IMG/VR virus record: IMGVR_UViG_3300025769_012369
Span: 1 to 54,764 of that record
Length of the DNA stretch: 54,764 bases
Source of the DNA: a virus
Lineage: Duplodnaviria > Caudoviricetes
Reading direction: 5' to 3' (one strand)
Of this stretch, positions 1 to 54,764 are shown one piece after another. Within the stretch, counting starts at the first letter, position 1. The number at the start of each line of letters is the position of its first letter. The notes beneath the pieces are model-generated. The model searched no databases. It was not told where the DNA came from and was given only the letters and a program-made list of their open reading frames with translations. The position numbers and the translations under genes are program-made.

Positions 1-154
1 ACTGATTTTCTTGACATAGGCCCCCTTCGCTCCCTTGCCCGCGGTCAGTTTCCAATGCACCGTGCCGCTCCATACGTTCTCGCTCATGCTGGTCGAGCTG
101 AGTGCTGTTTCAACGAGCACCTGGCCGGGCTTCAAGTTGAGTGCCGCTTGCTGA
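1..154. repeat. Terminal direct repeat, left copy (contig circularisation overlap)
   Basis: Bases 1-154 match 54611-54764 except G127 vs A54737. The repeat lies inside a reading frame that continues across the join. Confidence 0.97.
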
Positions 155-3100
155 TCCTTCTTCGATGAAAAGTTGATCTTCCGGCTGAGCATGGTCCCGG
201 GTTCAAGCGGCTTACTTGCTTTCTCGACGGCCTCCATCGCTTTCTTTGCGCCGGGTAGCGGGTTCAGCTTCCTCATGGAGTCGTTCCACTTCCCGTAATA
301 GGTGTTCCCCGTGTACATCCTGATGTGGTCAATGTCGATTTTCTCGACGCCGTCCACTCCTGCCGTTGGCGTGAACTCGTTCATGAGCTTATTCATCTCC
401 GAAGTCGAGGCCCAGGGTTTGACCGCTGGTGGTGGCGGCGGTGTGCCTCCAGGGATGTCGTCAAGCTGTAGGTAGGCTCCCAGTTCAGAGAACTTGACCG
501 TGCCCTTGCCCTTGGTGTCGAACTTCTTGATGGCCTCCGAAAAGTTCTTCTTCTTGGTGACCTCATCGACCACTTCCTTGTGGTATTCCTTGAGGCTCTC
601 AGGGAGGTCTTTCGCCATGCTGGCCAGGGCCTTGGTCTTCCCCTGCTTTGCCAGGGTAGTGATCTTCTTCGCCAAGGTGGCCTGGGTGTCCGGATCGTGT
701 TCCAGCACCTCCTGCGCGAACTGTTTGAGTTTGGGCGACGGTGGCAGGGTGGCGATGTAGGCCTTCAGCTTGGTCTTGTCCTTGAGCTTGGCCAGCTTCT
801 TCAGTTCCTTCACTGCCGCCTTGTTCGATTCGACCTGTTTCTTGTTACTGCTGACGAAATTCGGTTCGGCCGGGAAGGCCGTCGACGGAGCATCCGGCAG
901 GACGAGGTTCATCGGGTTGTCGATGGTCTCGTCTCCCTGGGTGCCGCCCGTGGGGAACGGTTCCATCTCTCCCGGCTCAAAGGTGCCGTCGATCAGGGAC
1001 TGCTGCAGGGCCTTCTTATAGGCGTGGGTCTTCTTCTCGTAGTAGTTGCCCTTCTCCCAGGTCGCGATCTTGTCGAGCTTGGTCGTGTCGCCCGTTTCAT
1101 AGGCCTCCTTCGCCGCCTTCCAAATCTTATTCACCTTGGCCGTGGCGTGCGCGTTGGTCCACTTGCCCGGCTTCGGTGGGTAGCCTGGGACCGGCTTCGG
1201 TGCTGGTGCCTTGGGTCCGGTCGCCTCGGGTGCCGGGGCAGGCTTGTTGACAGGCTGCTCAGTCTTGGGCTTGTCCGGCAATGCCTTGGCCTCCAAGTCG
1301 GCCTGCCACTTGGCGATGTTGTCACGCCGCTTCTTCAAGCGATCGGTCATGGCTGCTTTGTCGGCCTTGGTCCCGTGGCCATACTTGTCGACCACCTTCT
1401 TGATCTGGTCGTCACTCAGGCTTGTGACCTTCTTCGCGGACTCGATCAACTGCAGGTCGGTCATCTTGCCGTATACCTTGGCTGCCCACGGGTTCTTCGC
1501 GGGGTCGCGCATGTCGTTGACCTCGTCGGCGTTGTCGTTCCAGTCCGCGCCCTTGCTGGCCCCCTGAGCGCGGAACTCCAGTGCGCCGCCCACGTCCACG
1601 ACCTTGATGCCTTCGTCGGTCATCAGGGTGTTGTCGCCCCCGGTGCCGATGCTGTCCCAGTTGGCCAGCCAGGCGTGCGTCACAAAATCCTTCTGCGCTT
1701 GGTGGATGTAGTTCGGCGTCTTGAGGCTGTCGCCGATCTTCACCCCGTCCTTCCATTCGGTCGCTACAGCCGCTTCCGAGCCCTCAGTCTTGGCCGGGTG
1801 ATACTTGGCCACCCCGGCACCGGCCAGGTCGGTCAGGCGTGCGGCCAAGATTTCGTTGGCGGCGTGCTTCGCGCTCTTGGGTGTCTTGACGTAGAACTTC
1901 TGCCCGTTCAGTTCCATCTGCTGCCCCATGTTGGACCCAAGTTGCCCGCCGACCACCTTGGCCTGGCTGAAGTCCAGGACGCCGGACTCCGCTGCAGGTG
2001 ATTCGCTGGGGGCGTCGGTCAGGGCCTCGGCCGTGTTGCCCGCCTTGATCTTGGCGATGGCGAGGGCCTGCGCCCAGGCAACGGCCTTCTGGGTGCTGCT
2101 GGGTTTGTCGGTGTTGATCGGGGTGTATTCCTCCAGGGTGGTCAGGTCGCCCTCGGCCTCCAGCTTCTTGATCCAGCCGACCTTGTTGGTTGCCCACTTG
2201 GGAGGCCCGCCCTTCTTCCCGGCCCATTGCTCAACGTCGGGGTAGCCGTCGTCATCGGTCGCGCCCTTGTATTTCCATCCAGGCTTCACGCCCTTGGGTT
2301 TGATGGTGCCGATCTTGGCTGCAGACTTGTCGGACGTGGTCGCCTTGGGCTTCGGTTCCGGCTCAGGCTCCGCTGCCTGGTCTTCCTCCGTGGTCACCAG
2401 GGCTTTGACCTGGTCGGGCTGCACGAACTGCATGTCGCCCGCGGAGTCCTCAAACAGCAGGCCGTCCTGCTCCCCGTCGTTCTCCCATCCGTGGACCGTG
2501 CCCCCGACTAGGATGCCGTCGATCTCCGCGACAACCTCGGAACCCTTGCCTGCATCCATCACCTGGTCAGCGGTGGGGTTGTGGTTGGCTTTCTCCGGTG
2601 TGACTAGCTCGGATTCAATGTCCTGTTTGCTTGCTTCTTCGACTACGCCCGTCTCCATCGTCTCGACGCTGGACGGTGGCACGTTTTCATTCGTCACCCC
2701 GTTTTCGTCCTCGATGACCATCGTGCCATCTTCGTTGATCTGCTTCACCTCACCCTGCAGGCCGGACTCCAGTTCATTGACCTCGTCGCCGACTGAAAGT
2801 TCGGTGCCGTCTACGTCGGTGGTCTTGAGCTTGGGCGCAGACTGAACGGCTTCGATCTGGGCCTCCTCGATCAGCATCTCGCCGCCGCCGCCCTTGGAGT
2901 CCGCTACCCACGTCTCCGTGGCCTCGTCATAGTCGACCAGGGTGTATTCGGTGTCCCCTTCCCCGGCGATCTTCACCTTGTCGCCGTAGCCAACGGGCGT
3001 GCCTGGTCCGACCTTCTTCCAATCACCCTTCGCCTGGTCTCCCTGGGCCTTGCCGTTGCCCTTCTTCTCGCCGCCCTTGCTGGCGTCCCCGGCTCCCGCG

Positions 3101-4584
3101 TGACATTCCTTGTTCGGCGAGATGAACCCGTCGCCGCAGGGAACCCCGCCACTGCCCTTGTCGTCGGCGTTTCTGATGGCCCGTCCTGCGTCGGAATCGC
3201 GGCCAGGAGCGATTTGCCCGGTCCCTCGGCTATGCTCAGGCTCCAAAAGGCCCCGATGCCGCAGAAAGCGATTCTTGCGGGCCTCGATCCAGGACGCCAC
3301 CGGGGCCGTGGTGTCCCCTTTCTGAAGCCAGGTCGCGAACTCGGCGGCTTTCATGGAAGTCACCCCGCCAATGCGGGCCGGTCCCAGGCCGTCAGAGAAT
3401 GCGGCCGTGTAAGCCTGGACGGCCATCTGCCGGGACGGGAACCCGATCATGGCCTTGCCCTCGTCATACTCCCCGGTCATGGGGTGGATTTGGTCGATCA
3501 CGTAGACGTAGGGTGCCTCGAAATTGTCGAACAGGTAGCAGTCGAACGGTTCGCCGTCTGCCGCCCGGTGCCCATTGATCCGGCCGTAATAGGTCGGCAT
3601 CTGGACAGACCATGCTTCCCCGCGGTGGTCGGTGCCTGACCTGGTCTCGCCTGGTAGGTATTCGATCACAATGCCCAGGCCGTGAAACGGGAACCGCATC
3701 CCGTCCCTGGTCAGCTCGACCGCTGGCCCTGGTTGGGGGCCTCCCCGGTTCGTCAGGGCGGTCAGCACGTCGCCGATGAACTGGAAGCCTGGTCCCAGGG
3801 ACTTCAGCAGGGCGTCCTTGAACGGGTCGTCCAGCTTGATGGTGGCCTGCAGGTCGTCGTTGAATCCCAGATCGGCCTTCTTCACCTCCTGGCCCACCTT
3901 GATGATGCCCAGGCGTTCGGCTTCGTCACGGTCGACATCCATCACATCCATGCCACTGTTGAAATCGAACGGGGGATAGGGTTGGCCGAAACGGCTGATC
4001 TTGGTCCAGATCGGATCATTCTTCAGGGCGATCATGCGGCCGTTGTAGAGCTTGCCCCCTGCAGCCCTCCACCTGCGCGGCCAGTCACGCGGCTCGAAAC
4101 GGTCTTCGGCGCGGAACAGCTCCTGCGCGGGCCATAGGTCCAGCACGGTCTCGTCCTGGCCTTGTTGCCAATAGCCGTAGCCTCGGGCCATCTCGGTGTT
4201 CGTCTTGATGATCAGGTTCAGCCGCTGGTCGGATGACAAGTCGCGGATGGTGCCCTTGTGTTCGCCGGGGTCGTAGCCCATGCGGGCGTGAATGTCCTTC
4301 AGCTTGGCGCGGGCCGTGCCGATGTCCAGGCCTTCGGTGTAGACCCCGGCCGGTGCGCTTGGGTCGAGCTTTTGCTGCGGGGCCAGGATGTCGTTGATCA
4401 CCGCATCCAGCTCCTTCAGGTAGGCCGCGTTCGCCGTGCGTGCGCTGAACCTGGCGCGGGCCTTCAGGGATGCGTCCAGCTTCTCCAGGTCTGCACTCGA
4501 CAGGGTGGTGGGGACGATCCGCTTGACCTTGGTGCTGTCCAGGGCCTCCTCGAAATCAACAGGCTGGTCGAACAGGTTGCTCAT
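1..4584 (-). CDS. MuF-family head morphogenesis protein fused to inorganic-pyrophosphatase-like, HipA/PI3K-like kinase and ADP-ribosyltransferase domains; continues across the join to 54479 (1571 aa total)
   Basis: Translated by hand: ATG at 4584 (MSNLFDQPVDFEEAL), no in-frame stop down to base 1, then continues at 54610. MuF-like motifs RLNLIIKTNTEMARGYG and PYPPFDFNSGM. InPase-like segment IEYLPGETRSGTD...YYGRI...DGEPFDCYL...YDEGKAMIGF. Kinase motifs GGQLGSN/FYVK/NEILAARL/WLANWD...DN/VDVGG. ART motifs LSRK/SSTS/NEGEVLLP. Position after gp36 fits a Mu-like head operon. Confidence 0.88.
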   Translation of the reverse strand, partial: MSNLFDQPVDFEEALDSTKVKRIVPTTLSSADLEKLDASLKARARFSARTANAAYLKELDAVINDILAPQQKLDPSAPAGVYTEGLDIGTARAKLKDIHARMGYDPGEHKGTIRDLSSDQRLNLIIKTNTEMARGYGYWQQGQDETVLDLWPAQELFRAEDRFEPRDWPRRWRAAGGKLYNGRMIALKNDPIWTKISRFGQPYPPFDFNSGMDVMDVDRDEAERLGIIKVGQEVKKADLGFNDDLQATIKLDDPFKDALLKSLGPGFQFIGDVLTALTNRGGPQPGPAVELTRDGMRFPFHGLGIVIEYLPGETRSGTDHRGEAWSVQMPTYYGRINGHRAADGEPFDCYLFDNFEAPYVYVIDQIHPMTGEYDEGKAMIGFPSRQMAVQAYTAAFSDGLGPARIGGVTSMKAAEFATWLQKGDTTAPVASWIEARKNRFLRHRGLLEPEHSRGTGQIAPGRDSDAGRAIRNADDKGSGGVPCGDGFISPNKECHAGAGDASKGGEKKGNGKAQGDQAKGDWKKVGPGTPVGYGDKVKIAGEGDTEYTLVDYDEATETWVADSKGGGGEMLIEEAQIEAVQSAPKLKTTDVDGTELSVGDEVNELESGLQGEVKQINEDGTMVIEDENGVTNENVPPSSVETMETGVVEEASKQDIESELVTPEKANHNPTADQVMDAGKGSEVVAEIDGILVGGTVHGWENDGEQDGLLFEDSAGDMQFVQPDQVKALVTTEEDQAAEPEPEPKPKATTSDKSAAKIGTIKPKGVKPGWKYKGATDDDGYPDVEQWAGKKGGPPKWATNKVGWIKKLEAEGDLTTLEEYTPINTDKPSSTQKAVAWAQALAIAKIKAGNTAEALTDAPSESPAAESGVLDFSQAKVVGGQLGSNMGQQMELNGQKFYVKTPKSAKHAANEILAARLTDLAGAGVAKYHPAKTEGSEAAVATEWKDGVKIGDSLKTPNYIHQAQKDFVTHAWLANWDSIGTGGDNTLMTDEGIKVVDVGGALEFRAQGASKGADWNDNADEVNDMRDPAKNPWAAKVYGKMTDLQLIESAKKVTSLSDDQIKKVVDKYGHGTKADKAAMTDRLKKRRDNIAKWQADLEAKALPDKPKTEQPVNKPAPAPEATGPKAPAPKPVPGYPPKPGKWTNAHATAKVNKIWKAAKEAYETGDTTKLDKIATWEKGNYYEKKTHAYKKALQQSLIDGTFEPGEMEPFPTGGTQGDETIDNPMNLVLPDAPSTAFPAEPNFVSSNKKQVESNKAAVKELKKLAKLKDKTKLKAYIATLPPSPKLKQFAQEVLEHDPDTQATLAKKITTLAKQGKTKALASMAKDLPESLKEYHKEVVDEVTKKKNFSEAIKKFDTKGKGTVKFSELGAYLQLDDIPGGTPPPPPAVKPWASTSEMNKLMNEFTPTAGVDGVEKIDIDHIRMYTGNTYYGKWNDSMRKLNPLPGAKKAMEAVEKASKPLEPGTMLSRKINFSSKKDQQAALNLKPGQVLVETALSSTSMSENVWSGTVHWKLTAGKGAKGAYVKKIS

Positions 4585-4588
4585 TGCG

Positions 4589-5035
4589 TCAGATCACCGC
4601 CTGGTTGTCTCCCTTCCACATGCTGGTGCGTGCGACGATGCTCGGTTTCGGTGAACCGATGACCTCGTCCTCGGGCGTGATTGCTTCCTCGATCTCAAAG
4701 TCACCACGCGCCACCGCCTGCAGCAGCATACGGCCTTCCCTGGCTGCGTCCTTGCGGACACCGTCGGGGTCGATGATCACGCCACCGGCTCGGGACATGA
4801 TCTGCATGATGATCAGGGCGACCACGGCGCGGATCAGTTTGCTCGGGATGGTCAGGCCGTCCTCCAGGGTGAACTGCTTGGCGATGTAGCCTCGCGCCTC
4901 GTCCACAACGTCGGTGATGGTTTCGGCAATGGGGTCGTCGTCTCCGACTCCCACAACTGCCGCACGAAACGCGCTCAGTTCTGCATCGCTGAGCTGCCTT
5001 TCGATGTCCGCTTCGGTAATCGTTCGCCAAGCCAT
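4589..5035 (-). CDS. Mu gp36-like head-tail connector (DUF1320-like)
   Basis: MAWRTITEADIERQLS...DEARGYIAKQF...LLQAVARG resembles the gp36 family; follows the capsid gene. Start placed at ATG 5035, downstream of the terminator. Confidence 0.75.
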   Translation of the reverse strand: MAWRTITEADIERQLSDAELSAFRAAVVGVGDDDPIAETITDVVDEARGYIAKQFTLEDGLTIPSKLIRAVVALIIMQIMSRAGGVIIDPDGVRKDAAREGRMLLQAVARGDFEIEEAITPEDEVIGSPKPSIVARTSMWKGDNQAVI

Positions 5036-5051
5036 GGCTACACGGAAACAG

Positions 5052-5083
5052 AAAAGGGGCACCCCGTCAATGCAGGGTGCCCC
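5052..5083 (-). terminator. Intrinsic terminator after the major capsid gene
   Basis: Minus strand reads GGGGCACCC-loop-GGGTGCCCC followed by TTTT. Confidence 0.75.
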
Positions 5084-5104: not shown

Positions 5105-6031
5105 TTACGACGCCGAGACGGTGAGCAGTTTGCCCGCAGGGGCGTTGATCACCTTGATGTCCTCGGACCAGTCGAACTTCGCGATCTCCACACGGCCGTC
5201 GTCGCGGTCGTAGGAACCGGGCACCATGTATTGCCCCGCCAAACGGAACGTCTTCATGAAGCTCGGGTCACGCCGGGTCGGGGACTCGCGCCGGGCGAAG
5301 ATCAGGACGGCCGCATCGAGCAAAAAGCTCATGCTGGATGCCTTACCCTCGGCAGCGGTGTCCTCTACCATGTAGCTGCAGCGGACCTCGGGGTTGCCCA
5401 GGAGCAGACCGGAGGCCTGTTCCGTGGTCACGTTCGGGATCGCGCTGCGAACCGCGTTGGTGAACCGGGCACGCACCTTGTCGGCGTTCTTGAACAAACG
5501 CCAGGCGGTCGCACCGAACAGCACGCCGACACCCATGAGGGAACCGTAGGCTGCGGCCTTGATGACCTCCAGGATCTGTTCGTCGATGTCATCGACAGGG
5601 TCCGCGCTGCTGTCCCAGACCTTTGCGCTCGGGGTCAGGGCGGCAACGCCAGCGGCCAAGACGCGCTTCTCATGGGCCAAGGCAGAAACCTCGGCGATCA
5701 GGTCAGCACCTTCCTTGATCGCGGACTCAAGCTGCGCCTCTTCCAGTTCCTCCAACTTGTCGACCGGGAAGTCGAGAGCGTGCGGCTCGCAGTTGTAGGT
5801 CTGGTCCTCGGCGTCGAAGCTGAGTTCCGTTGCGCGTCCACCCAGGCCACGCAAGGTGTCCGGAATGTGAAAGCGGTGTTTCTCGTCGTATTTCTTGTAC
5901 CGGCCAACGGAGGTCGGAACCTCCACGGTCGGGGCCAAGAAATCGGCGACCGGCTGGATCGCGGTTTGTGCCGCGCCCTGGGCGTATTCCCGAATGATCG
6001 GGTTGGAACTGAGGTCGGATAGTCTTCCCAT
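5105..6031 (-). CDS. Major capsid protein (HK97 fold)
   Basis: 308 aa, after the protease and decoration genes and followed by a terminator; ADFLAPTVEV...WDSSADPVDDI pattern typical of capsid-E-like proteins. Confidence 0.8.
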   Translation of the reverse strand: MGRLSDLSSNPIIREYAQGAAQTAIQPVADFLAPTVEVPTSVGRYKKYDEKHRFHIPDTLRGLGGRATELSFDAEDQTYNCEPHALDFPVDKLEELEEAQLESAIKEGADLIAEVSALAHEKRVLAAGVAALTPSAKVWDSSADPVDDIDEQILEVIKAAAYGSLMGVGVLFGATAWRLFKNADKVRARFTNAVRSAIPNVTTEQASGLLLGNPEVRCSYMVEDTAAEGKASSMSFLLDAAVLIFARRESPTRRDPSFMKTFRLAGQYMVPGSYDRDDGRVEIAKFDWSEDIKVINAPAGKLLTVSAS

Positions 6032-6092: not shown

Positions 6093-6839
6093 TTACACGG
6101 TGGTGACGGGGGGACCGGCCACGCCGGACAGTCCGACGATGATCCAGCCGACCGTATCGTCGACGTATTCCAGTTCAGCCCGGTCCCCGGCATCCGCGAA
6201 CTCGATGGTCGCCCATCCGGTTGAGGTGGCAGGGGTCAGGGTTCCGGCACCGCCGTCGACAACCAGCGTGATGCTGAGTCGCTGCCCGGCAACGCCGTCT
6301 GCGAGGGTCAGGGCCTCGACCCCGCCCGTGGTCTTGCTCACGTGCCGGTGGGTGACCGGGATGACGAGCGTTGCACCGGCCACGGCGACGTTGCCGCCAC
6401 CGGGAACAGTGACCTGACGAGGGTCAGGGCGCACGCGGACCAGGGCACCGGCGTCGGCGTCCTTGTCGGCGATACCCGGCGAGAACACTTCCTCGGGGCC
6501 GGTTGCGCTGGACGAACGGAGCGCACGCACCTTGCCCTTGTCGGCAGCGGTGGTTACGTCCGCGAGTTCAACGCGCTGGCCCGCCTGGATGCCGTCCTTC
6601 GCGACTAGGAACACGTTGCGGTTGGGGTTGAGCGGCCGAACATCGGACGCTTCATCTTCGCCCAGGCCGTTCTCGACGACGTAGAGGGCGCGGTCACTTT
6701 GTGCGGTGGGCAGCAGAACTTCCGGTGTGTTGGCGTCCTTGCGGGACATCTTGACCAGGTAGCTCTCCTTGCCAACGAGGGTCTCACCAGAGTTGACCGG
6801 GTAGATGCCCTCCTGCGTGTTGCTTTGGAGTGGATTCAT
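6093..6839 (-). CDS. Capsid decoration/cement-like protein with beta-rich C-terminal extension
   Basis: 248 aa between scaffold and capsid genes; Gly/Ala/Val/Thr-rich beta composition. Confidence 0.55.
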   Translation of the reverse strand: MNPLQSNTQEGIYPVNSGETLVGKESYLVKMSRKDANTPEVLLPTAQSDRALYVVENGLGEDEASDVRPLNPNRNVFLVAKDGIQAGQRVELADVTTAADKGKVRALRSSSATGPEEVFSPGIADKDADAGALVRVRPDPRQVTVPGGGNVAVAGATLVIPVTHRHVSKTTGGVEALTLADGVAGQRLSITLVVDGGAGTLTPATSTGWATIEFADAGDRAELEYVDDTVGWIIVGLSGVAGPPVTTV

Positions 6840-6903: not shown

Positions 6904-8373
6904 TCAGATCTGCTCGACGACTTCTTTCTGAGCCATTGCGAACGCACGGCGGTAGGGCACCCGCAGGCTGGCCTGCAGTTCCTTCGCCCGGTTGGCGATC
7001 TTGTTTGCATTGGTGGTCGCCTGGGTGCTGGCCTGGTCCTTGGTCAGCTCGGGCGCGGCGGGCCGCTGTTCGCGGTTGTAAACCGGCGCAGGCCGGTTCG
7101 CCTTGGTCGTCGGTTTCTTCGCCTTGATGGCCTTCAGGAGCTTGATCGTGCCGGTGCGGTTGGCCAGGAGCTGCCTGCGCATTTCCTGGGGGTCACCGAT
7201 CACGGATTCATAGTCCTTCAGATCGCGCTCGACCAACTCGTTCAGCATTCCGCTGTTGCGGTTGCGAAGCCGGTTGACGTATTCGTCCTTCTCCTCATCG
7301 TCCATGTTGGCGATTTCCTCGTCGGTCGGGTCGTCCTCGCTGTTCATCACCTTGTTGGGGTCTTCTTCTTCCCCAGGGGTGGCCATGTTGGCGGTGGGAT
7401 ACTCAAGCTCCTTCGGGTCTGTCTTGGGCGGCGTGGGTTTCTGCTGCTGCGCCATGTTGGACATGGTGCCATCGACAGCGGCCTGAACCTGCTCGTCGGT
7501 TGCCTCTGGTGGGAGACCGAGCAGGGACAGCAACATAGTTCTGTAGTCCATGGTATTTTGGTTCCTTACGGGTTTGCTCGCTCCGCAGTTGGGTTCCACT
7601 GAGCGGTTGTCGTTTGACAAGGGCACCATGCCCTTGAGGTTGGGGTCATTGGTCAACGCCAGGCTGTCCAGGCGCAGGGGACGCAGGCGACCATTTCCTG
7701 CATCCTCCATCTCGTCGCGCAGCCATACCGGCGACACAAGACGATAGTCTCCGTTCTCGACTGCCTCCCGGCCGGTCTTTGACCAGCGGATGCGTGCCCA
7801 GAGTCCATTCGGCCGGTTCTGCATCGCGGTGATCCAACCGGCTGCACGGCTCTCATGGTTCACGTCCAGGCTGAAGTGGTCGAAGTCGACCAGCACGCCT
7901 GGGAAGTTGGGTTCCTTGGAGGCTTTTCGGAAAGCGTTCAGCATTGCACCCATCGCTTGTTCGTCGAGTAGTTGTTCGGTGCCGCTCTCTCGGTGGGTGA
8001 ACTGCCCCTTGGGTGCGATGTGGTACCAGCCGTCTTTCGGGAGGCTGAACCCGTCCTGGGTTCCCTGGTCCCGATTGATCAGGGTGCACTTGCCAGTCAT
8101 GCAGTCGGACCGGCCTCGGTTGGCGATCTTCCGGTTGCGGAGTAGGGCGCGGGCAAGGCGGGCCTGATGAGATTCGTTCTGTGGCGTTGTGGCGGGCTTG
8201 GGCTGTGGTGTGCCCTGGGAACGGTTGCGAAGCCGTGTCGCGCCCGTGGGGACGCCGGAACCGGCCCCCTGGTTGATCGTGGGGGCAATGGAACGGGTCT
8301 CCTGGTCCACGGGCTGCGTGATCGACCGGAATCCGGTCGTTCGCTGTGGGCCTTTGAATGCCGTCTTCTTCAT
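6904..8373 (-). CDS. Mu I-type prohead protease with C-terminal scaffold
   Basis: VLVDFDHFS, AAGWI, LWARIRWS...YRLVSPVW, LALTNDPNL protease motifs, then LLGLPPEATDEQV and an acidic/helical scaffold region. Confidence 0.88.
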   Translation of the reverse strand: MKKTAFKGPQRTTGFRSITQPVDQETRSIAPTINQGAGSGVPTGATRLRNRSQGTPQPKPATTPQNESHQARLARALLRNRKIANRGRSDCMTGKCTLINRDQGTQDGFSLPKDGWYHIAPKGQFTHRESGTEQLLDEQAMGAMLNAFRKASKEPNFPGVLVDFDHFSLDVNHESRAAGWITAMQNRPNGLWARIRWSKTGREAVENGDYRLVSPVWLRDEMEDAGNGRLRPLRLDSLALTNDPNLKGMVPLSNDNRSVEPNCGASKPVRNQNTMDYRTMLLSLLGLPPEATDEQVQAAVDGTMSNMAQQQKPTPPKTDPKELEYPTANMATPGEEEDPNKVMNSEDDPTDEEIANMDDEEKDEYVNRLRNRNSGMLNELVERDLKDYESVIGDPQEMRRQLLANRTGTIKLLKAIKAKKPTTKANRPAPVYNREQRPAAPELTKDQASTQATTNANKIANRAKELQASLRVPYRRAFAMAQKEVVEQI

Positions 8374-10040
8374 GCTTCTGCAGTTTCCATTCCGTTGAAC
8401 AGTTCGGCCGTCATGGCTCGCTCCATGACCTTTGCGGACTGCGGTTCGGTGTTGATCTGCTCGAGTATGGCGGGAAGCTCGGCCTTCAACTCTCGGAGTT
8501 TTTTATCACGTTCACGCACATCGTCAATACGCATTATTGCCTCGATCCGGTTGCGGACCGGCTCCAGGTCGTGCGCCATCGCTTCACCTACCTGGTCTCT
8601 TGCGGTGCGTTTAATTCGTTCCCCGGCCTCCAGTTGGCTCGACCGCTCTATGGCGCGGAGTTGGTTCGCAAAGAACCGTTCCAGCTTGGCGGCGGTCTGT
8701 TGGTGGCCCTGGGGAACCTCCTTACATACTTCCCGAAACAGTTCCATCGCACGCTTGTTGCGGAACTGCAGCCCTGGGGCGGGGCTGAGATTCGCCCCGG
8801 CTTGCGCCGGGACTGGGCTTGGGGCTGCACCGGGGAATCCGCTTTCCATGCCAGGACCGCCCGCCGCGTTCTCCTGACGGGTCAGCTTCAGGCCCGTTTT
8901 CTCCGACACCTCTGCGGCGTCGGCCTGCAGTCCTGCGCCCGAAAGTGCGACGACGTTGTCGACCAGCTTTTGCGTGTCCTCCACGTCCTTTGCCGCAAGC
9001 TCAAAATAGACAAACGGCTCAGGGGCATGTGGGAACTTCTCCATGATGTGGAGGTCAAGCAGTTGGGACTGAATGATCTCGCTGATCTCTGCAGCCTCCG
9101 CAATGGCCAGTTCGTCGAACGTGTCCATGTGGGAATCGCTTTGCCCGCTCCCCAGGCCGGTCGGTTCGTTCAGGACGGTCAGTTTCCCGCTTGTCCCGGC
9201 CAGGACAATCTGCTGGTCCTGATAGTCGACATGGTCACGGAACGGGTTCATGCCGCGCTCACCGTCCTTGATGGTGGCAACGGTGGCACCGTTTGGCAGG
9301 ACACCGCGTGCGTCACTGATCACTTGGTCGGCGAAGTCCTGCCACTCGGCAATGTTCTTGTTCTGGCTGCTGTTCTCCGGTAGCTGGATGAAAATCGGGG
9401 GGATGCCAAAGGTCTCGATGAACCCGTCCCAGTCTTTCTGCGACAGGTTCTTGCGCATGTGGGCGATGGCGGCGATCTCGTCAATGGGGTCGTCCACTTC
9501 TCGGATCACGAAGCCCACCGGATTGATGGGTACCCCGTTGTTGCTGTTGGCGAGCTTGTCGAACCTCCAGCGGTTGTCAGGGAACCGCTTGCACCAATGC
9601 CAGTGTGGGACCGGCTCCAGGTGGTAGGGCAGGCCGTCGTTGTCCCAGTGTTTCTCCAAGTGGCTGAACCCTCGGAACTCCGCCAAGGCCAGGTGGTCGA
9701 TGGCTTCCTTCAGGTTGTCGATCCCCTCCAGAAGCTCGCGAGCATAGGCTGCTTGGTCCTCGGCCATCTGCTTGAACTGGAACTTCACCCCGGTTGGGTC
9801 CAGCACGTCGCTGTTGATCTTGATGTCCCAGTCCAGTTTCTTGATCGCGGCCTGTCTGCGCTTCTTGACCGCTCGCAGGGTGGCGTCCCGTTTCTCGATG
9901 AATCTGAACAGCCATTGCAGTTCGGAATACCATCCGCGCTCAGCCGCTTCCAGCAGGTAGCCGACTCGCAAAATGGTCAGGCCACGCAGCGGGTTGAACT
10001 GCTGCCGCCAGACCATGAAACGCTTCTGATACAAGTTCAC
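8370..10040 (-). CDS. Portal protein (Mu gp29/DUF935-like)
   Basis: 556 aa between TerL and protease; RGFSHLE, DWDGFIETFGIP and GLGSGQSDSH motifs resemble DUF935 portals. Confidence 0.85.
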   Translation of the reverse strand: MNLYQKRFMVWRQQFNPLRGLTILRVGYLLEAAERGWYSELQWLFRFIEKRDATLRAVKKRRQAAIKKLDWDIKINSDVLDPTGVKFQFKQMAEDQAAYARELLEGIDNLKEAIDHLALAEFRGFSHLEKHWDNDGLPYHLEPVPHWHWCKRFPDNRWRFDKLANSNNGVPINPVGFVIREVDDPIDEIAAIAHMRKNLSQKDWDGFIETFGIPPIFIQLPENSSQNKNIAEWQDFADQVISDARGVLPNGATVATIKDGERGMNPFRDHVDYQDQQIVLAGTSGKLTVLNEPTGLGSGQSDSHMDTFDELAIAEAAEISEIIQSQLLDLHIMEKFPHAPEPFVYFELAAKDVEDTQKLVDNVVALSGAGLQADAAEVSEKTGLKLTRQENAAGGPGMESGFPGAAPSPVPAQAGANLSPAPGLQFRNKRAMELFREVCKEVPQGHQQTAAKLERFFANQLRAIERSSQLEAGERIKRTARDQVGEAMAHDLEPVRNRIEAIMRIDDVRERDKKLRELKAELPAILEQINTEPQSAKVMERAMTAELFNGMETAEA

Positions 10041-10072
10041 GCTTCAGGGAGTAACATTCGGGGCACAGCGGG

Positions 10073-11599
10073 TCAAGTGTAGCTTCGGTCCCGCCGCTTG
10101 CTCAGGGATCGGCCCCGCCGCCCTGGGGTGCTGGTCGGGATAGGTGGGTTCACCTCGCTCGCAAGGTAGTTGAAGGCCCCGCTCACACCGTCCACCTGGT
10201 CGTCGTTCTCGCTGGCTGGGAAGGCCTCCAGCTCCATCTCGAAATCGGGAATCCACGGGCCGCGCACCAGGAACACCTTGCCCTCCTTGGCAGCGGCAAA
10301 CAGGCTCAGGCACCGGGTTAGCTTGTCCTTGTTCACCTTCACCGATACGCACGGCACCTGGGGCGGTAGGACTTCGACCAGGTTCTGCCGGGCTGCTTCG
10401 AATCCACCCACGGCCTCCATCGCGATGACGTGTTCCTCCTGCTGCGCGATCTCGGCGATCTTGTCCCGTGCGACCGGCCAGGTCCACTTGCCCTTGGTGA
10501 TGCCGAACACGTAGAAGCGGCCGTCCCGGTCCATCGCGCACCTGGCTCCCGCGGTGAAGTCGTTCTCCTCTTTTTCGTCGGTGGCCGTGTCCCAGAAGCG
10601 CACCCACCGCAGGCCCTCGATGGGCATCTCGTCGGCGTTGATGTGCTGCAGCCATTCTAGCTTGCAGTAGTTGCCGCCCTTGATCACCGGTCGCTGCCGA
10701 TACATGGCGGTCCAAATGTAGTCCAGCATCGTGGCTTGGATCAGCTTCAGCTCCTTCAGCGGCCAGCGGTTCGGGTCCAGGGCCTCCCCTGGCTTGCGCC
10801 CCATTAAGTCACCTTCCTCAGCGATGGCGGGCAAAATGATCTCCTCCCAAGTCTCGGAGTCGGGGTCGATGTCCGCGTCCTCTAGTCGGGCCTTGATTTC
10901 TTCCTGGCGCGACGGGTCAAGGAAGCGGCCGACCAGGTCATCTTTGTGCCAGCGGGTCATGATGATGATCACCACGCCCCCTGGAGACACACGGGTTCGG
11001 CCGGTCGACCAGTACCAGTTCCAGATGCGTTCACGTTCGCTTGCGCTGTGGGCGTGCGCGTAGTCCTTGAACGGATCGTCAACAACCAGGACATCGCAGC
11101 CTCTGCCGGTCAGTGTGCCCTGGGTGCCGACTGCCAGGTATCGCCCACCGTCCTGGGTTTGCAGGTCGTTCTTTTTCTGGGTGTGCTTGGACAGCCTGCT
11201 GTCGGGGAACGTCGCCTTGTATTCGGGCGAGCGCATGATCTCACGGCACTCGACGGCGTGATCCTGGGCGAGGTCGCCCGAGTGCGAGACCATCGCGAAC
11301 TTGAGGTTGGGTCGCTTGCCCAGTGCCCAGGCCACAAACTCGATGGCGGTCAGGCGGCTCTTACCGTGCCGGGGAGGCACCGAGATGATCACCCGCTTGT
11401 GGCCCTTGGCTGAGTTTGGCCCGATGGAATTGAAAACGTCGTGCAGGACTTCGGCCAGGAACTCATGGAAACCGCTGACCTCGTAGGCCGGGTCATGCAG
11501 CTTGGTGAAGGTCAGCAGGTCGTTCTGCGCCTTGGTCCGTATCCGGCCTGCCGTGGTTGGGACCGGCTCAGTGGTTGCCGTTCCCGTTGCCATTGCCAT
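10073..11599 (-). CDS. terL: Terminase large subunit
   Basis: Walker A VPPRHGKS, Walker B LVVDDP, IMTRWH, nuclease motifs RFWDTA and DDQVDGVSGA. Confidence 0.95.
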   Translation of the reverse strand: MAMATGTATTEPVPTTAGRIRTKAQNDLLTFTKLHDPAYEVSGFHEFLAEVLHDVFNSIGPNSAKGHKRVIISVPPRHGKSRLTAIEFVAWALGKRPNLKFAMVSHSGDLAQDHAVECREIMRSPEYKATFPDSRLSKHTQKKNDLQTQDGGRYLAVGTQGTLTGRGCDVLVVDDPFKDYAHAHSASERERIWNWYWSTGRTRVSPGGVVIIIMTRWHKDDLVGRFLDPSRQEEIKARLEDADIDPDSETWEEIILPAIAEEGDLMGRKPGEALDPNRWPLKELKLIQATMLDYIWTAMYRQRPVIKGGNYCKLEWLQHINADEMPIEGLRWVRFWDTATDEKEENDFTAGARCAMDRDGRFYVFGITKGKWTWPVARDKIAEIAQQEEHVIAMEAVGGFEAARQNLVEVLPPQVPCVSVKVNKDKLTRCLSLFAAAKEGKVFLVRGPWIPDFEMELEAFPASENDDQVDGVSGAFNYLASEVNPPIPTSTPGRRGRSLSKRRDRSYT

Positions 11600-12257
11600 T
11601 GCCGTTTGATCCGTTCCCGTTGGCCCCTGGTCCGATGCGCCTCGCCCGGTCCCAAGGATTCAGCCCGTGCTTTCGCCGGACTTCTCGCTCGATGCTTTCC
11701 TCCAGGACAGCGATCAGGTGCGGGGCAGGCAGCACCTCGTCCAGGCTCGGCGGGGTTTCGATCTCCAGTTGCTTGGGCGCGTCCAGGCCCAGGAGTGCCG
11801 CCTCGCGCTCCATCGCCTTCAGAATGACCATGTGCCACCTGGGGTCCGCCAGGCGTTCCTCGTTCTCCACGGATGCGAAGCTCTCCCGGCCCTGGGTTGC
11901 TCCCTGCTGCCCCTGGTTGCCCCCCTGGGGCGTTCTGTCCTTCCACCCCTGCTTGGAGGACTTGCGGGGCGTTGTGGACTGTTCCAGGCGAAGCCATGCG
12001 TCCCGTTGCAGTTCCTGCAGGGCGACCAGTTGCCGGTTCTTGAAGGTGGTTGTCACATTGACCGCCTGCTGCTTCCACTCGGCTTCGATGAGCTTGGCGT
12101 CCTTGGCGACCATCTGCTGGCTGATTGAGTAGTTGCGATTCTCCGCAAGCCATTGCGCCACCGCAGCTTGGGTCATTCCTCGAGCCAGCAACCCGGCGAT
12201 GACCGGCAGGTCGGCCTTGCGCTGGGCTGGGGTTCGCTTGTGGACTGGGCTGGCCAT
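11568..12257 (-). CDS. terS: Terminase small subunit (N-terminal HTH)
   Basis: Directly upstream of TerL; HTH-like GMTQAAVAQWL...ISQQMVAKD; REAALLGLDAP motif. Start placed at ATG 12257. Confidence 0.7.
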   Translation of the reverse strand: MASPVHKRTPAQRKADLPVIAGLLARGMTQAAVAQWLAENRNYSISQQMVAKDAKLIEAEWKQQAVNVTTTFKNRQLVALQELQRDAWLRLEQSTTPRKSSKQGWKDRTPQGGNQGQQGATQGRESFASVENEERLADPRWHMVILKAMEREAALLGLDAPKQLEIETPPSLDEVLPAPHLIAVLEESIEREVRRKHGLNPWDRARRIGPGANGNGSNGNGNGNGNGNH

Positions 12258-53357: not shown

Positions 53358-53980
53358 TTGATCTTCGCTAGTTTGCCCAGGGTCGTTTTCATGGTGGCGA
53401 TCAGCTCCTTGTCCTTGGGGATCACCTCGGGCGTTGGTTTCTGGTTCACCGACCGGCGCAGGACGTAAAGGATGTTCCAGCGTGCCCGCAGGCGTTCGCC
53501 CTTCTTTCGCTTGCCCTTGCCGTTCCTGGGTGTGGTGTCGCCCGGGATGCCCAGGGCGACCGGTTTACCGTCCTTGTTGAATACCAGCTTCAGGTCAGGG
53601 AACTCGGATGCACGCTTGCCGTGGGCCTCGGCTGCGACCGGGATGGTCAGGAACTTGGTCGGGCCGCTGCCGGTGCTGGAATTGTTGCGCCCTGGTTTGA
53701 TCTGCCCGCCATAGATGCGCTGCTTGATTCCCACATGGCTGATCCAGACGATCACCAGCTTTCCGTCCTGCTTCCAGTGCGTGGCCCGTGCTGCCTGGGC
53801 GTAGAAGTTGGTTCGCTTCCCTCCCAGCTTGTTGGGGTTGGCCCTGTTGTATCGGAACAGGTGGTTGCGGACGTGGGTTTGCACTGCTCGTCCAAGGGCC
53901 GGGCGCACCTTGTCCATCTGCAGGCTGTTGATCATGGCCTGCAGTGGCTTGGTCGCGTAGTCCTTGACGGTGATCTTCAT
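53354..53980 (-). CDS. Neck/tail-completion protein (Mu gpG-like)
   Basis: Basic 208-aa protein, QRIYGGQIKP...KFLTIP; follows the MuF locus. Confidence 0.65.
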   Translation of the reverse strand: MKITVKDYATKPLQAMINSLQMDKVRPALGRAVQTHVRNHLFRYNRANPNKLGGKRTNFYAQAARATHWKQDGKLVIVWISHVGIKQRIYGGQIKPGRNNSSTGSGPTKFLTIPVAAEAHGKRASEFPDLKLVFNKDGKPVALGIPGDTTPRNGKGKRKKGERLRARWNILYVLRRSVNQKPTPEVIPKDKELIATMKTTLGKLAKIK

Positions 53981-54474
53981 TCGTCGTCGTCGTCTTCCTC
54001 GATTGTGGGGTCGGTCCCCATGAGTCTCTGCGCGGCCAGTGTAATCATGGCTCGCATGTGGGCGGCAATCTCAATCGGCGGCTCCCCGCTCTCCTTCATG
54101 TCCTGAAGGGTCTCTGTGAACTCGACCACGGTGACGGTGAAAAACGATTTCAGCACCTCCTCCGGTGTCTCCCCTCCGAACATGAGAACTTGCTTCAGGT
54201 AGCGGTCGACGTTGCCCCGCGTAAACCAGGCGGTGCCTTCGAAGTCCTCCGACTCGCTGAATAGGATCGGGGTCAGGGTTGCCATCTGCTTGTCGATCCA
54301 GGCCTCCAGCTCGTCCTCACTGGTTCCGTCGTCGTCCCACCATTCGATGAACTCCGCGATGAACTGCTGCACGATGCCGCGCACGTTGCTGAAGTTGCCC
54401 AGGCTGTTCTCTCCGTTGGCCTGCGCGATGGCTTGCTTCAGGAATTCGTCGTCTTGTTCTTGTGGTGTGCTCAT
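53977..54474 (-). CDS. Acidic helical protein; candidate immunity protein for the MuF effector
   Basis: 165 aa, very D/E-rich; starts 4 nt after the MuF-ART stop. The ORF is well supported; the function is inferred. Confidence 0.6.
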   Translation of the reverse strand: MSTPQEQDDEFLKQAIAQANGENSLGNFSNVRGIVQQFIAEFIEWWDDDGTSEDELEAWIDKQMATLTPILFSESEDFEGTAWFTRGNVDRYLKQVLMFGGETPEEVLKSFFTVTVVEFTETLQDMKESGEPPIEIAAHMRAMITLAAQRLMGTDPTIEEDDDDE

Positions 54475-54478
54475 GCGT

Positions 54479-54764
54479 TCAGTCGTTGAAGATTACCGCC
54501 TCGACAATGATCGGGTTGCCAGTCGACACGATGCCGGTGTGCTTCTGCACCTTCTTGATCACGTAGCGGGTGTTTGCCGGGAGCAGCACTTCGCCTTCGT
54601 TGCTATAAGCACTGATTTTCTTGACATAGGCCCCCTTCGCTCCCTTGCCCGCGGTCAGTTTCCAATGCACCGTGCCGCTCCATACGTTCTCGCTCATGCT
54701 GGTCGAGCTGAGTGCTGTTTCAACGAGCACCTGGCCAGGCTTCAAGTTGAGTGCCGCTTGCTGA
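54479..54764 (-). CDS. C-terminal ADP-ribosyltransferase end of the MuF polyprotein (same gene as 1-4584)
   Basis: ETALSSTSMSENVW...SAYSNEGEVLLPANTRY: STS and ExE motifs of R-S-E ARTs; in frame with 1-4584 through the terminal repeat. Confidence 0.88.
   Translation of the reverse strand, partial: QQAALNLKPGQVLVETALSSTSMSENVWSGTVHWKLTAGKGAKGAYVKKISAYSNEGEVLLPANTRYVIKKVQKHTGIVSTGNPIIVEAVIFND
54611..54764. repeat. Terminal direct repeat, right copy
   Basis: Matches 1-154 with a single mismatch. Confidence 0.97.

Follow-up and report, generated by a model that had tools for sequence, protein, structure and literature searches.

The giant open reading frame and its continuity

We analysed at full length one stretch of viral DNA, hereafter the window: IMG/VR record IMGVR_UViG_3300025769_012369 (54,764 bases, 60.6% G+C, CheckV completeness 100, IMG/VR class 'linear'). 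It encodes a giant minus-strand open reading frame (ORF) of 1571 amino acids (aa) that crosses the ends of the record. Its product carries, in order, a divergent MuF-like domain, an InPase domain, an atypical kinase-like domain and an ADP-ribosyltransferase (ART) domain, and is a rare, rich combination of common parts. A sequence-only reading of the window had proposed such a hidden frame, running from an ATG at 4584 through base 1 and across the join to a stop at 54479. This was borne out after removal of a 154-base overlap between the two ends. The pieces concerned are the following.

1..4584, minus strand: giant ORF, main part, aa 1-1528; ATG at 4584, 4 bases past the stop of the adaptor-like gene
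54479..54610, minus strand: giant ORF, last 43 codons, aa 1529-1571 (with E1533-G-E1535), and TGA at 54479-54481; contiguous window end
54611..54764, no strand: end duplicate of window 1-154, an overlap left by assembly of a genome of about 54,610 bp that is circular or circularly permuted

The main part (1528 aa) is still open at base 1. A second minus-strand frame of 94 aa (54479..54763), which contains an 88-aa ORF (54479..54745), is open at the window end. Since the first 51 residues of this second frame are identical to the last 51 of the 1528-aa piece, the two frames are one ORF (1528 + 43 = 1571 aa). Window positions 1-154 repeat positions 54611-54764 except for one base (G at 128 vs. 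A at 54738); the mismatch is synonymous, either copy being translated as ...LNLKPGQVLVE.... When base 54764 is joined directly to base 1, the frame is lost and a stop is reached after 14 further codons. When the overlap is removed, the frame goes on through 54610..54482 to the TGA. The 128/54738 mismatch is probably the reason for the class 'linear', despite a complete circle or permuted genome.

We then considered whether the long frame could be an assembly artefact of the contig ends, as the differing base and the listing of the record as linear would suggest. The probability of this is practically nil in our view. The ART tail is real DNA, being read from the unbroken stretch 54479-54763 of the window. 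P0004 (1919 aa), the closest homologue, stays collinear with the window protein across the join up to its final residues and has the same ...IFND C-terminus; 72% of residues are identical in aa 1-495, and 39% in most of the remainder. In addition, Logan contigs from four freshwater metagenome runs covered 30, 30, 28 and 30 of the 30 bins of window 1-4700 with zero substitutions and zero indels; the frame is intact. One of these four runs (X2) is possibly the source of the IMG/VR record, the other three not being so marked. A 31,294-base contig of X2 carries window 1-4700 at positions 7070-11769 and 7 kb more DNA beyond base 1, and a 616-base contig of X9 likewise extends beyond base 1.

We also asked whether the 154-base repeat could physically terminate a linear genome at both ends. 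This was rejected: the gene would be cut, and independent contigs read through. An antisense frame of 473 codons lies open over the kinase region (580-2001, plus strand). It is most likely a by-product of the high G+C content, and homologues were found only for the sense frame.

Domains of the giant protein

The features of the protein, all on the minus strand, are listed from its N-terminus.

3748..4584, minus strand: divergent MuF-like domain, aa 1-279 (family hidden Markov model (HMM) match to Mu gp30; no Pfam match)
4174-4212, minus strand: MuF-like motif IIKTNTEMARGYG
3949-3981, minus strand: PYPPFDFNSGM, replacing the Y-P-P...N-C-R-C stretch of Mu gp30
3322..3696, minus strand: InPase, a polyvalent-type family I pyrophosphatase-like OB domain, aa 297-421 (Pfam PF18823)
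3538-3561, minus strand: acidic motif ADGEPFDC of the InPase domain
3103..3138, minus strand: linker motif C-G-x-G-x-I-x5-C, aa 483-494 (alignment A3)
2350..3027, minus strand: acidic Gly/Glu/Asp-rich region, aa 520-745 (composition; KOW4_SPT5 below threshold)
1282..1983, minus strand: atypical protein-kinase-like domain, aa 868-1101 (AlphaFold2 fold, invariant residues)
Kinase residues, minus strand: G-loop GGQLGSN, K900 (1885-1887), E911 (1852-1854), D977 (1654-1656), N985 (1630-1632), D997 (1594-1596)
385..1167, minus strand: Lys-rich spacer linking kinase and ART, probably helical, aa 1140-1400 (conserved with P0004)
1..372, minus strand: N-terminal two thirds of the ART domain, aa 1405-1528 (whole domain about 1405-1571), with R1468 at 181-183 and S-S-T-S at 88-99; the rest in 54482-54610

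The sequence-only reading had placed its motifs at the right coordinates: R1468 (181-183), SSTS (88-99), GGQLGSN (1930-1950), YVK (1885-1893), WLANWD (1654-1671), VDVGG (1585-1599) and the E-G-E of NEGE (54590-54598).

For the N-terminal domain, we used a family alignment of 70 members, i.e. the window protein and 69 of 80 viral ORFs. The 11 others (L036, L047, L051, L054, L068, L069 and L081-L085) were left out as apparent near-duplicates, judged by length and identity. The family profile matches Mu gp30, the MuF prototype, at 37.3 bits in two colinear pieces that overlap the region of Pfam Phage_Mu_F (59-188): HMM positions 29-147 correspond to Mu gp30 31-148, and positions 190-218 to Mu 175-203. 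In the second piece, PYPPFDFNSGM stands opposite Y-P-P-N-G-W-N-C-R-C of Mu gp30. From 12,589 sequences, four outside the family were matched at E<=0.01 (Mu gp30, 1.3e-9; L132, 3e-6; P0149, 2.2e-5; L125, 1.1e-4), and all four were also found by an independent MuF profile seeded with SPP1 and Mu. A phmmer search with Mu gp30 as query found family members at E values of 1.4e-7 to 1e-4. The family profile reached 105.8 bits against the 'head morphogenesis' protein of Akkermansia phage Chantilly and did not match SPP1 gp7 (0.1 bits). When the N-terminal model was compared with 48,161 PDB chains by VIA-align, none exceeded Z 5.5 and only short helical matches were obtained. The comparison thus recognised no solved MuF-like structure, which is not evidence of a new fold. 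We conclude from the profile comparisons that the N-terminus represents a divergent Mu-type branch of the MuF superfamily, below Pfam detection. The MuF domain of the sequence-only reading therefore stands as a divergent branch, reached by the family profile through Mu gp30, and not as a match to Pfam Phage_Mu_F.

We also looked at what is attached to this domain elsewhere. It is encoded by 107 viral contigs, 80 of which were kept for analysis, and there it mostly stands alone: 78 of the 80 are stop-to-stop ORFs of 238-588 codons, the exceptions being L010 (1557) and L021 (1058). It is also encoded by 115 genome contigs; among the 80 kept, two have an extension of more than 250 aa, both kinase-like. 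Within the 70-member family, the C-terminal extensions are PBECR3 (7), PBECR2 (2), ADPrib_exo_Tox (2), InPase (1), NUDIX (1) and LPD1 (1), which are domain types typical of MuF proteins. Nine proteins of 840-2674 aa join the MuF-like domain to very different C-terminal Pfam domains (Topoisom_I with 2H, Zeta_toxin, ART-PolyVal, PPDK_N), and in one of them it is preceded by Portal_Mu.

The InPase-like domain announced by the sequence-only reading was recovered by Pfam PF18823 with an E value of 3.6e-33 (114.7 bits vs. a cut-off of 26.8; profile positions 13-135 of 135). Its acidic residues D343, E345, D348, D374 and E375 are all present. A match was also obtained in the portal of Pseudomonas phage Pa193 (9b41_L; E 1.7e-15), at the C-terminal end of the sequence, and the domain ends other Pbunavirus 'minor head proteins', again as a portal fusion. 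The published Pa193 portal model, as described in PMC11456595, comprises residues 94-528 only, and the InPase end lies outside it. In their main text, Iyer et al. 2017 (PMC5512222) define InPase, report portal fusions and propose that it hydrolyses pyrophosphate or nucleotide-like signals.

Between the InPase and kinase-like domains, short motifs and an acidic region are found. A degenerate E-x-H-P-R-x3-G-x-F motif lies just after InPase (EHSRGTGQI, aa 450-458, window 3211-3237), and many kinase-ART homologues (alignment A1) have one or more such motifs at domain boundaries. The linker motif reads C-G-D-G-F-I-S-P-N-K-E-C in the window protein and recurs between domains in other carriers of the MuF-like domain (P0004, P0154, P0157 and P0158); possible roles of this P-C-G-x-G-x-I-x5-C motif are those of a metal-binding knuckle or of a site for processing. 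The SH3/KOW-like repeats that the sequence-only reading saw in the acidic region were not confirmed. A single match to KOW4_SPT5 was found, below threshold (E 0.025, 14.9 bits vs. a cut-off of 27), and the pairwise local alignment scores of three candidate repeat units were equalled or exceeded by 81, 120 and 198 of 300 shuffles. With aa 520-745 as query, the ESM Atlas returned no usable match.

The kinase-like region has no sequence match in Pfam, NCBIfam or PDB. NCBIfam gave zero matches for the whole 1528-aa piece, and Pfam HipA_C and HipA_2 gave none at E<=1 on the window protein. When the A1 profile was run against PDB sequences, it found ARTs only, through the ART parts of the co-aligned homologues, and no kinase. 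The domain was modelled with AlphaFold from an alignment of 18 short homologues, with a predicted local distance difference test (pLDDT) score of 89.7 and a predicted template modelling (pTM) score of 0.86. The best Foldseek matches of this model in PDB are chains of Helicobacter pylori CtkA (3akj/3akk/3akl; E 5e-8 to 2e-6, TM 0.55-0.60). At least 500 matches were obtained at E<=0.001, and all those listed are kinases. The VIA structural search, which is independent of Foldseek, gave CtkA at Z 15.4 (root-mean-square deviation 3.5 over 209 aligned residues), then CotH (12.8), PI4KIIalpha (12.7), MavQ (12.6), HipA (11.6), Fam20 (11.1) and actin-fragmin kinase (9.6).

Seven residues of the domain (G883, G887, K900, E911, D977, N985 and D997) are invariant in 19 sequences. 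K900 lies at a strand end, E911 in the next helix, D977 and N985 in an N-W-D-x7-N loop, and D997 in V-D-V-G-G after two short strands; their roles were assigned by position in the predicted fold, not by printed superposition. In homologues, HipA_C, HipA_2 and PI3_PI4_kinase give sub-threshold matches on the same N-lobe (13-24 bits where singly inspected), and HipA_C matches 6 of 27 homologues (best E 1.7e-18, the position of this best match being unseen). By its predicted fold and putative catalytic residues, the domain is a HipA/PI3-4K-like kinase outside the Pfam HipA families. The kinase fold that the sequence-only reading had expected is thus present in the structure prediction, and its HipA/PI3K-like label holds for fold and catalytic residues, not for membership of Pfam HipA.

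In an exhaustive HMMER search, the domain was recovered from 3781 representative proteins with E<=0.001; the stricter thresholds of 1e-10 and 1e-30 left 2391 and 501. Most carriers are large multidomain proteins; stand-alone proteins of 263-290 aa also exist. Among 153 proteins with the domain, 25 have 2 to 5 copies (P0005-P0016 among them). The alignment A2 consensus has, in the second copy, neither the catalytic Asp of NWD nor the metal-binding Asp of D-x-G-G, which suggests a pseudokinase. The main text of PMC5512222 describes a polyvalent kinase family of Verrucomicrobia (pro)phages in which an insert separates the catalytic His from the Asp, and which is said to be without the whole C-terminal subdomain. 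The kinase domain of the window may be the same, a comparison made by description only.

The kinase-like domain is flanked by Lys-rich helical stretches (aa 760-850 and 1140-1345, window about 385-2300) that look similar by eye (K-x-W...G-D...L...Y-x-K-K). This likeness is at best borderline, the two best pairs being reached by 5 and 6 of 300 shuffles. Comparable Lys-rich stretches are found in the homologues P0029 and P0148. On the spacer itself, Pfam matches are below threshold only (OSCP, EF-hand).

The ART domain was scored in pieces, since it spans the window ends. On the contiguous tail piece, Pfam PF03496 (ADPrib_exo_Tox) matches at E 6.9e-13 (48.8 bits vs. a cut-off of 23.4). In P0004, the ART covers ADPrib_exo_Tox profile positions 13-193 in one piece. 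Residues 1416-1525 also match the Listeria ART Lmo0066 (E 0.0018). R1468 stands in L-S-R-K, aligned with the R-G/R-K of homologues. S-S-T-S (1496-1499) and E1533-G-E1535 follow, with no variation of the Ser or of either Glu among eight sequences (alignment A6). The C-terminal ART of the sequence-only reading is accordingly supported by the Pfam match and by intact R-S-E residues with an ExE loop. Such a loop is linked with arginine-specific ADP-ribose transfer. The R-S-E ARTs form the Alt/VIP2 clade in the main text of Iyer et al. (PMC5512222).

We then investigated how these domains are combined. Local profiles detected an ART in addition to the kinase-like domain in 118 of its 150 best representative homologues. 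In 111 the kinase comes first and the ART C-terminal to it; in 108 of the 118 no more than 40 residues separate the ART from the protein end. Pfam finds ADPrib_exo_Tox in 19 of the 27 top kinase homologues, and others have a DRAT-type ART instead. In IMG/VR, at least 588 viral contigs encode the kinase-like domain, 80 of which were kept. These gave 66 kinase ORFs not cut at their 3' end, with an ART in the same ORF in 39, a MuF of SPP1/Mu type in 9 and InPase in 0. InPase, kinase and ART occur together in only 2 of the 150 representatives (P0004 and P0133), and so many enzymatic domains on one MuF are indeed uncommon, as had been proposed. P0004 has InPase and ART by Pfam, and the 1554-aa protein of L010 has MuF-like, NUDIX, InPase, kinase-like and ART domains.

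The strong association of kinase and ART raises another explanation, in which both form one functional unit, so that the protein would have two effectors (InPase and kinase-ART). Possible tasks of the kinase are choosing or priming the target, controlling the ART, or placing a second group on what the ART has modified. This would fit the co-occurrence and order described above, as well as the extra kinase-like copies and the loss of the two Asp in the second copy. However, all five catalytic kinase positions are invariant, as expected for an active enzyme, no ART was detected in 32 of the 150 representatives, and the stand-alone kinase-like proteins and separate kinase-like and ART genes of Gordonia phage Mareelih also speak against it; moreover, a joint mechanism is not implied by co-occurrence alone. 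We see a single unit as a real possibility, though an unlikely one. The three effectors of the sequence-only reading are therefore kept as three enzymatic domains, with the qualification that kinase and ART may act as one.

In Mareelih (L091, genes 76-79), the kinase-like domain is found in a 734-aa protein directly after the portal, the usual MuF place, and a separate 'ADP-ribosyltransferase' gene comes two genes later, as a split cassette.

Gene neighbourhood and proposed role

Nearly every long ORF of the window is on the minus strand. The genes around the giant ORF that were identified or scanned are the following.

10073-11599, minus strand: large terminase (PHROGs)
8370-10040, minus strand: portal (PHROGs)
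6904-8373, minus strand: prohead protease (PHROGs)
6093-6839, minus strand: 248-aa gene (PHROGs scan)
5105-6031, minus strand: major head protein (PHROGs)
4589-5062, minus strand: adaptor-like protein, 157 aa (PHROGs)
53977..54474, minus strand: 165-aa acidic protein, 4 bases downstream of the giant ORF (HMM of five counterparts)
Counterparts of the acidic protein: L010:12702-13190, L001:5722-6225, L088:4728-5231, L089:5854-6333, L090:5693-6190

The upstream genes are thus arranged on one strand as large terminase, portal, protease, 248-aa gene, major head and adaptor-like genes, then the giant ORF. Past the join come small genes of 165, 208, 244, 134 and 312 aa, then an 864-aa protein matching the tape-measure family, then replication genes. 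The giant gene is placed at the head-to-tail boundary of the structural module. On 80 related loci, the adaptor-like gene was found on 45 and a homologue of the tail-side 208-aa gene on 56. PHROGs returned only InPase-bearing families for the giant protein and zero matches for four downstream genes. Phage_Mu_F was not found in the six-frame translation of the window, so the window has no other such gene. In the family member P0159, the MuF-like domain is fused to a Portal_Mu domain. No RNA dataset is among the sequencing runs listed with phage sequence.

We favour a MuF-anchored polyvalent protein that is packaged in the head, released with the DNA and acts early on host molecules; we consider this fairly probable. 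Through the MuF domain (aa 1-280), the prohead would take up the whole protein in a few copies, and the remainder would be cargo leaving with the DNA and active early in the infected cell. There, the InPase would hydrolyse pyrophosphate or a nucleotide-like phosphoanhydride, the CtkA/HipA-like atypical kinase would act on host molecules, and the Alt/VIP2-type R-S-E ART with its ExE loop would modify protein arginine. Our view of packaging and injection draws on where the gene lies in the head module, on its homology to MuF and on a Yersinia homologue. Within the capsid, Mu gpF and SPP1 gp7 are located at the portal. For Yersinia phage fHe-Yen8-01, GenBank lists both the giant kinase-like and ART protein and a small acidic protein as 'particle associated protein'; these notes are the depositor's, and our literature search turned up no paper behind them. 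The portal fusions of InPase in Pbunavirus also favour a link with the virion.

Several observations weigh against this reading. Phage_Mu_F (PF04233; gathering threshold 29.6 bits) has no match in aa 1-296 at E<=10 and matches 0 of the 70 family members at E<=1, and hhalign against a MuF alignment dominated by SPP1 is weak (29 columns at 44% probability). The AlphaFold2 model of the N-terminal domain is only fair (pLDDT 66). Its matches in BFVD are also weak (best E 6.9e-3, none at E<=0.001); of the top 10 rows, five bear the names head morphogenesis, GpF-like, MuF-like or minor capsid and five are nameless. The giant gene comes after the major head and adaptor-like genes, not directly after the portal as in SPP1 and Mu. 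In addition, a protein of 1571 residues is large cargo for a capsid that holds 54.6 kb of DNA, the prohead protease may process it, and in ADGEPFDC a Glu replaces the second Asp of the classical pyrophosphatase signature D-x-D-x-x-D.

The same neighbourhood could be read as an assembly-side role, in which the protein acts only in the producing cell or capsid (head morphogenesis, packaging, pyrophosphate clearing) and is not delivered. MuF proteins are annotated as head morphogenesis, Mu gp30 is a 'minor head protein and DNA pilot', and the giant gene is co-oriented with the late structural genes. However, kinase and R-S-E ART domains have no known function in capsid assembly, and the MuF-like fusions (PBECR nucleases, ART, NUDIX, Zeta toxin, 2H, topoisomerase) are host-directed effectors. 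T4 Alt is moreover a precedent for an injected R-S-E ART, according to the main text of PMC5512222. We consider an undelivered protein very improbable.

We then examined the acidic protein directly downstream. Genes for proteins of the same acidic family (159-167 aa) immediately follow that for the kinase-ART protein in L010 as well as in the phages Jeremy, Touem01, fHe-Yen8-01 and ST4, i.e. in 6 of 6 hand-inspected loci including the window, four of which are similar phages of about 90 kb. An HMM of the other five places the 165-aa protein at the top of the 484 window ORFs (E 9.8e-7, 23.5 bits; next E 0.52), and in a shuffle control the best of 1000 sequences reached 11.0 bits. By BLAST, the 165-aa protein and its Jeremy counterpart have no significant similarity, and their relation is seen by profile only. 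NCBIfam and PHROGs gave zero matches for this protein. In a wider sample, the acidic family adjoins 7 of 39 kinase-ART ORFs, as detected with a small and insensitive profile. The acidic protein could be an inhibitor, a chaperone or a structural partner.

This neighbour evokes the MuF polymorphic toxins of Jamet et al. 2017, and the window protein could then be a prophage weapon or a modulator of lysis and lysogeny, with the acidic neighbour as its immunity protein. PMC5576092 and PMC11699363 describe MuF toxins that end in an ART tip and have an immunity gene downstream, the acidic protein follows the kinase-ART gene in all the hand-inspected loci, and MuF-like relatives are found in bacterial contigs of 1.8 and 3.5 Mb (prophages). 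However, the acidic family is next to few kinase-ART ORFs in the wider sample (with the insensitive profile), it has no NCBIfam or PHROGs family, and the small protein of fHe-Yen8-01 is itself annotated as particle associated. No integrase came up in the window, though none was searched for, and serial enzymatic domains are unlike the usual layout with a single tip. A toxin of this kind is improbable in our opinion, and we keep the head-packaged, early-acting protein as our reading.

A bolder proposal also deserves mention. The CtkA/HipA-like kinase and the R-S-E (or DRAT-type) ART would form an obligate two-enzyme phage cassette that performs a composite, 'hardened' modification or a phospho-gated ADP-ribosylation, with the acidic protein as a co-packaged inhibitor or chaperone. 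For example, a phosphate could be placed on the ADP-ribosylated target or on the ADP-ribose itself, and would block removal by host hydrolases. We give this proposal a small chance. If true, the coupled cassette would be a new capsid-delivered mechanism of host takeover or counter-defence.

Comparison with known systems, hosts and distribution

All four domain types and packaged multi-enzyme proteins are already known, as the accounts in PMC5512222, PMC9503650 and PMC5576092 indicate. The window protein differs in its MuF branch below Pfam detection, in the R-S-E ART in a polyvalent architecture, and in the kinase-ART pairing with a recurrent small neighbour. Our literature search turned up no description of this pairing, a point that the supplementary alignments and tables of the key papers could alter. 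The words 'HipA', 'PI3K' and 'CotH' are absent from the main text of PMC5512222, 'HipA' and 'protein kinase' from PMC3482391, and 'kinase' and 'pyrophosphatase' from the main text of PMC5576092.

The window protein resembles MuF proteins (Mu gp30/F, SPP1 gp7) in its N-terminus, homologous to Mu gp30 across the Phage_Mu_F region, and it shares with MuF proteins and toxins a head-module gene with a variable C-terminal effector. It differs in lying below the Pfam model, in having PYPPFDFNSGM for Y-P-P...N-C-R-C and in not being adjacent to the portal. ART tips on MuF are known, in 14% of the 191 MuF toxins of PMC5576092 according to its main text; MuF toxins have a single tip, whereas the window protein has three enzymatic domains.

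Like the polyvalent proteins of PMC5512222, which in its main text unite many effector domains in one virion-associated polypeptide with InPase as a defined member domain, the window protein has InPase, kinase-like and ART domains on one chain encoded in the head module. Its kinase-like domain has six residues between His and Asp (H-x6-D, HAWLANWD), recalling the insert of the Verrucomicrobia kinase family described there, and its relatives are Verrucomicrobiota prophages. It differs in that an R-S-E ART shares the chain with InPase; Iyer et al. 2017 (PMC5512222) state that they had not met an R-S-E ART inside a polyvalent architecture, although MuF-Alt/VIP2 fusions are noted in a 2022 paper by the same authors. 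With T4 Alt, the window protein shares the ART clade, judged by Pfam family and the R/S-T-S/E-x-E residues and not by sequence alignment, and the proposed route from head to host. T4 Alt appears in the main text of PMC5512222 as a packaged, injected ART, with no mention there of MuF, InPase or kinase.

H. pylori CtkA and HipA-type kinases are the best structural matches of the kinase-like domain (CtkA Z 15.4, Foldseek E 5e-8; HipA Z 11.6). The identity is only 11-16%, the N-W-D-x7-N loop is peculiar to the window family, and the window domain lies inside a phage structural polyprotein. CtkA is cargo of a mobile element, the tfs3 integrative and conjugative element, as stated in part of PMC5536186. 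The phages of about 90 kb (Pseudomonas Jeremy and Touem01, Yersinia fHe-Yen8-01, Aeromonas ST4) share the kinase-then-ART order at 30-36% identity and the homologous acidic protein of about 160 aa next to it. They differ in the separate NUDIX or phosphatase gene that follows and in their genome type and neighbourhood. Pfam detected neither InPase nor MuF in the Jeremy protein.

Injected phage proteins govern the first minutes of infection, and to our knowledge T4 Alt and the P1 Dar proteins are among the few to have been investigated. The ORF described here is a clean natural example of a MuF carrier with three predicted enzymes. Its ART-linked kinase-like domain is very common (3781 representatives; at least 588 viral contigs) and has no Pfam or NCBIfam model, and our literature search turned up no paper on the domain. 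If kinase and ART act jointly, they would represent a new kind of combined protein modification in phage-host conflict.

Finally, we looked for the bacteria that carry the MuF-like branch. By title, 72 of the 80 genome contigs are from Verrucomicrobiota and allied bacteria of the Planctomycetes-Verrucomicrobia-Chlamydiae (PVC) group, including Opitutaceae, Kiritimatiellae, Chthoniobacterales, Akkermansia and Lentisphaerae, a few of the genera being ones that we take to be PVC. The eight exceptions among these contigs (L172-L251) are L178, L183, L209, L215, L221, L222, L233 and L235. The two MuF-like matches in bacterial contigs of 1.8 and 3.5 Mb are prophages, given the size of these contigs. 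On these sequence matches, the branch appears to mark a PVC prophage lineage missed by Pfam Phage_Mu_F, which can now be assigned to MuF and tied to Verrucomicrobiota prophages. The phage of the window itself was found in freshwater metagenomes only, and its host is probably a member of the Verrucomicrobiota.

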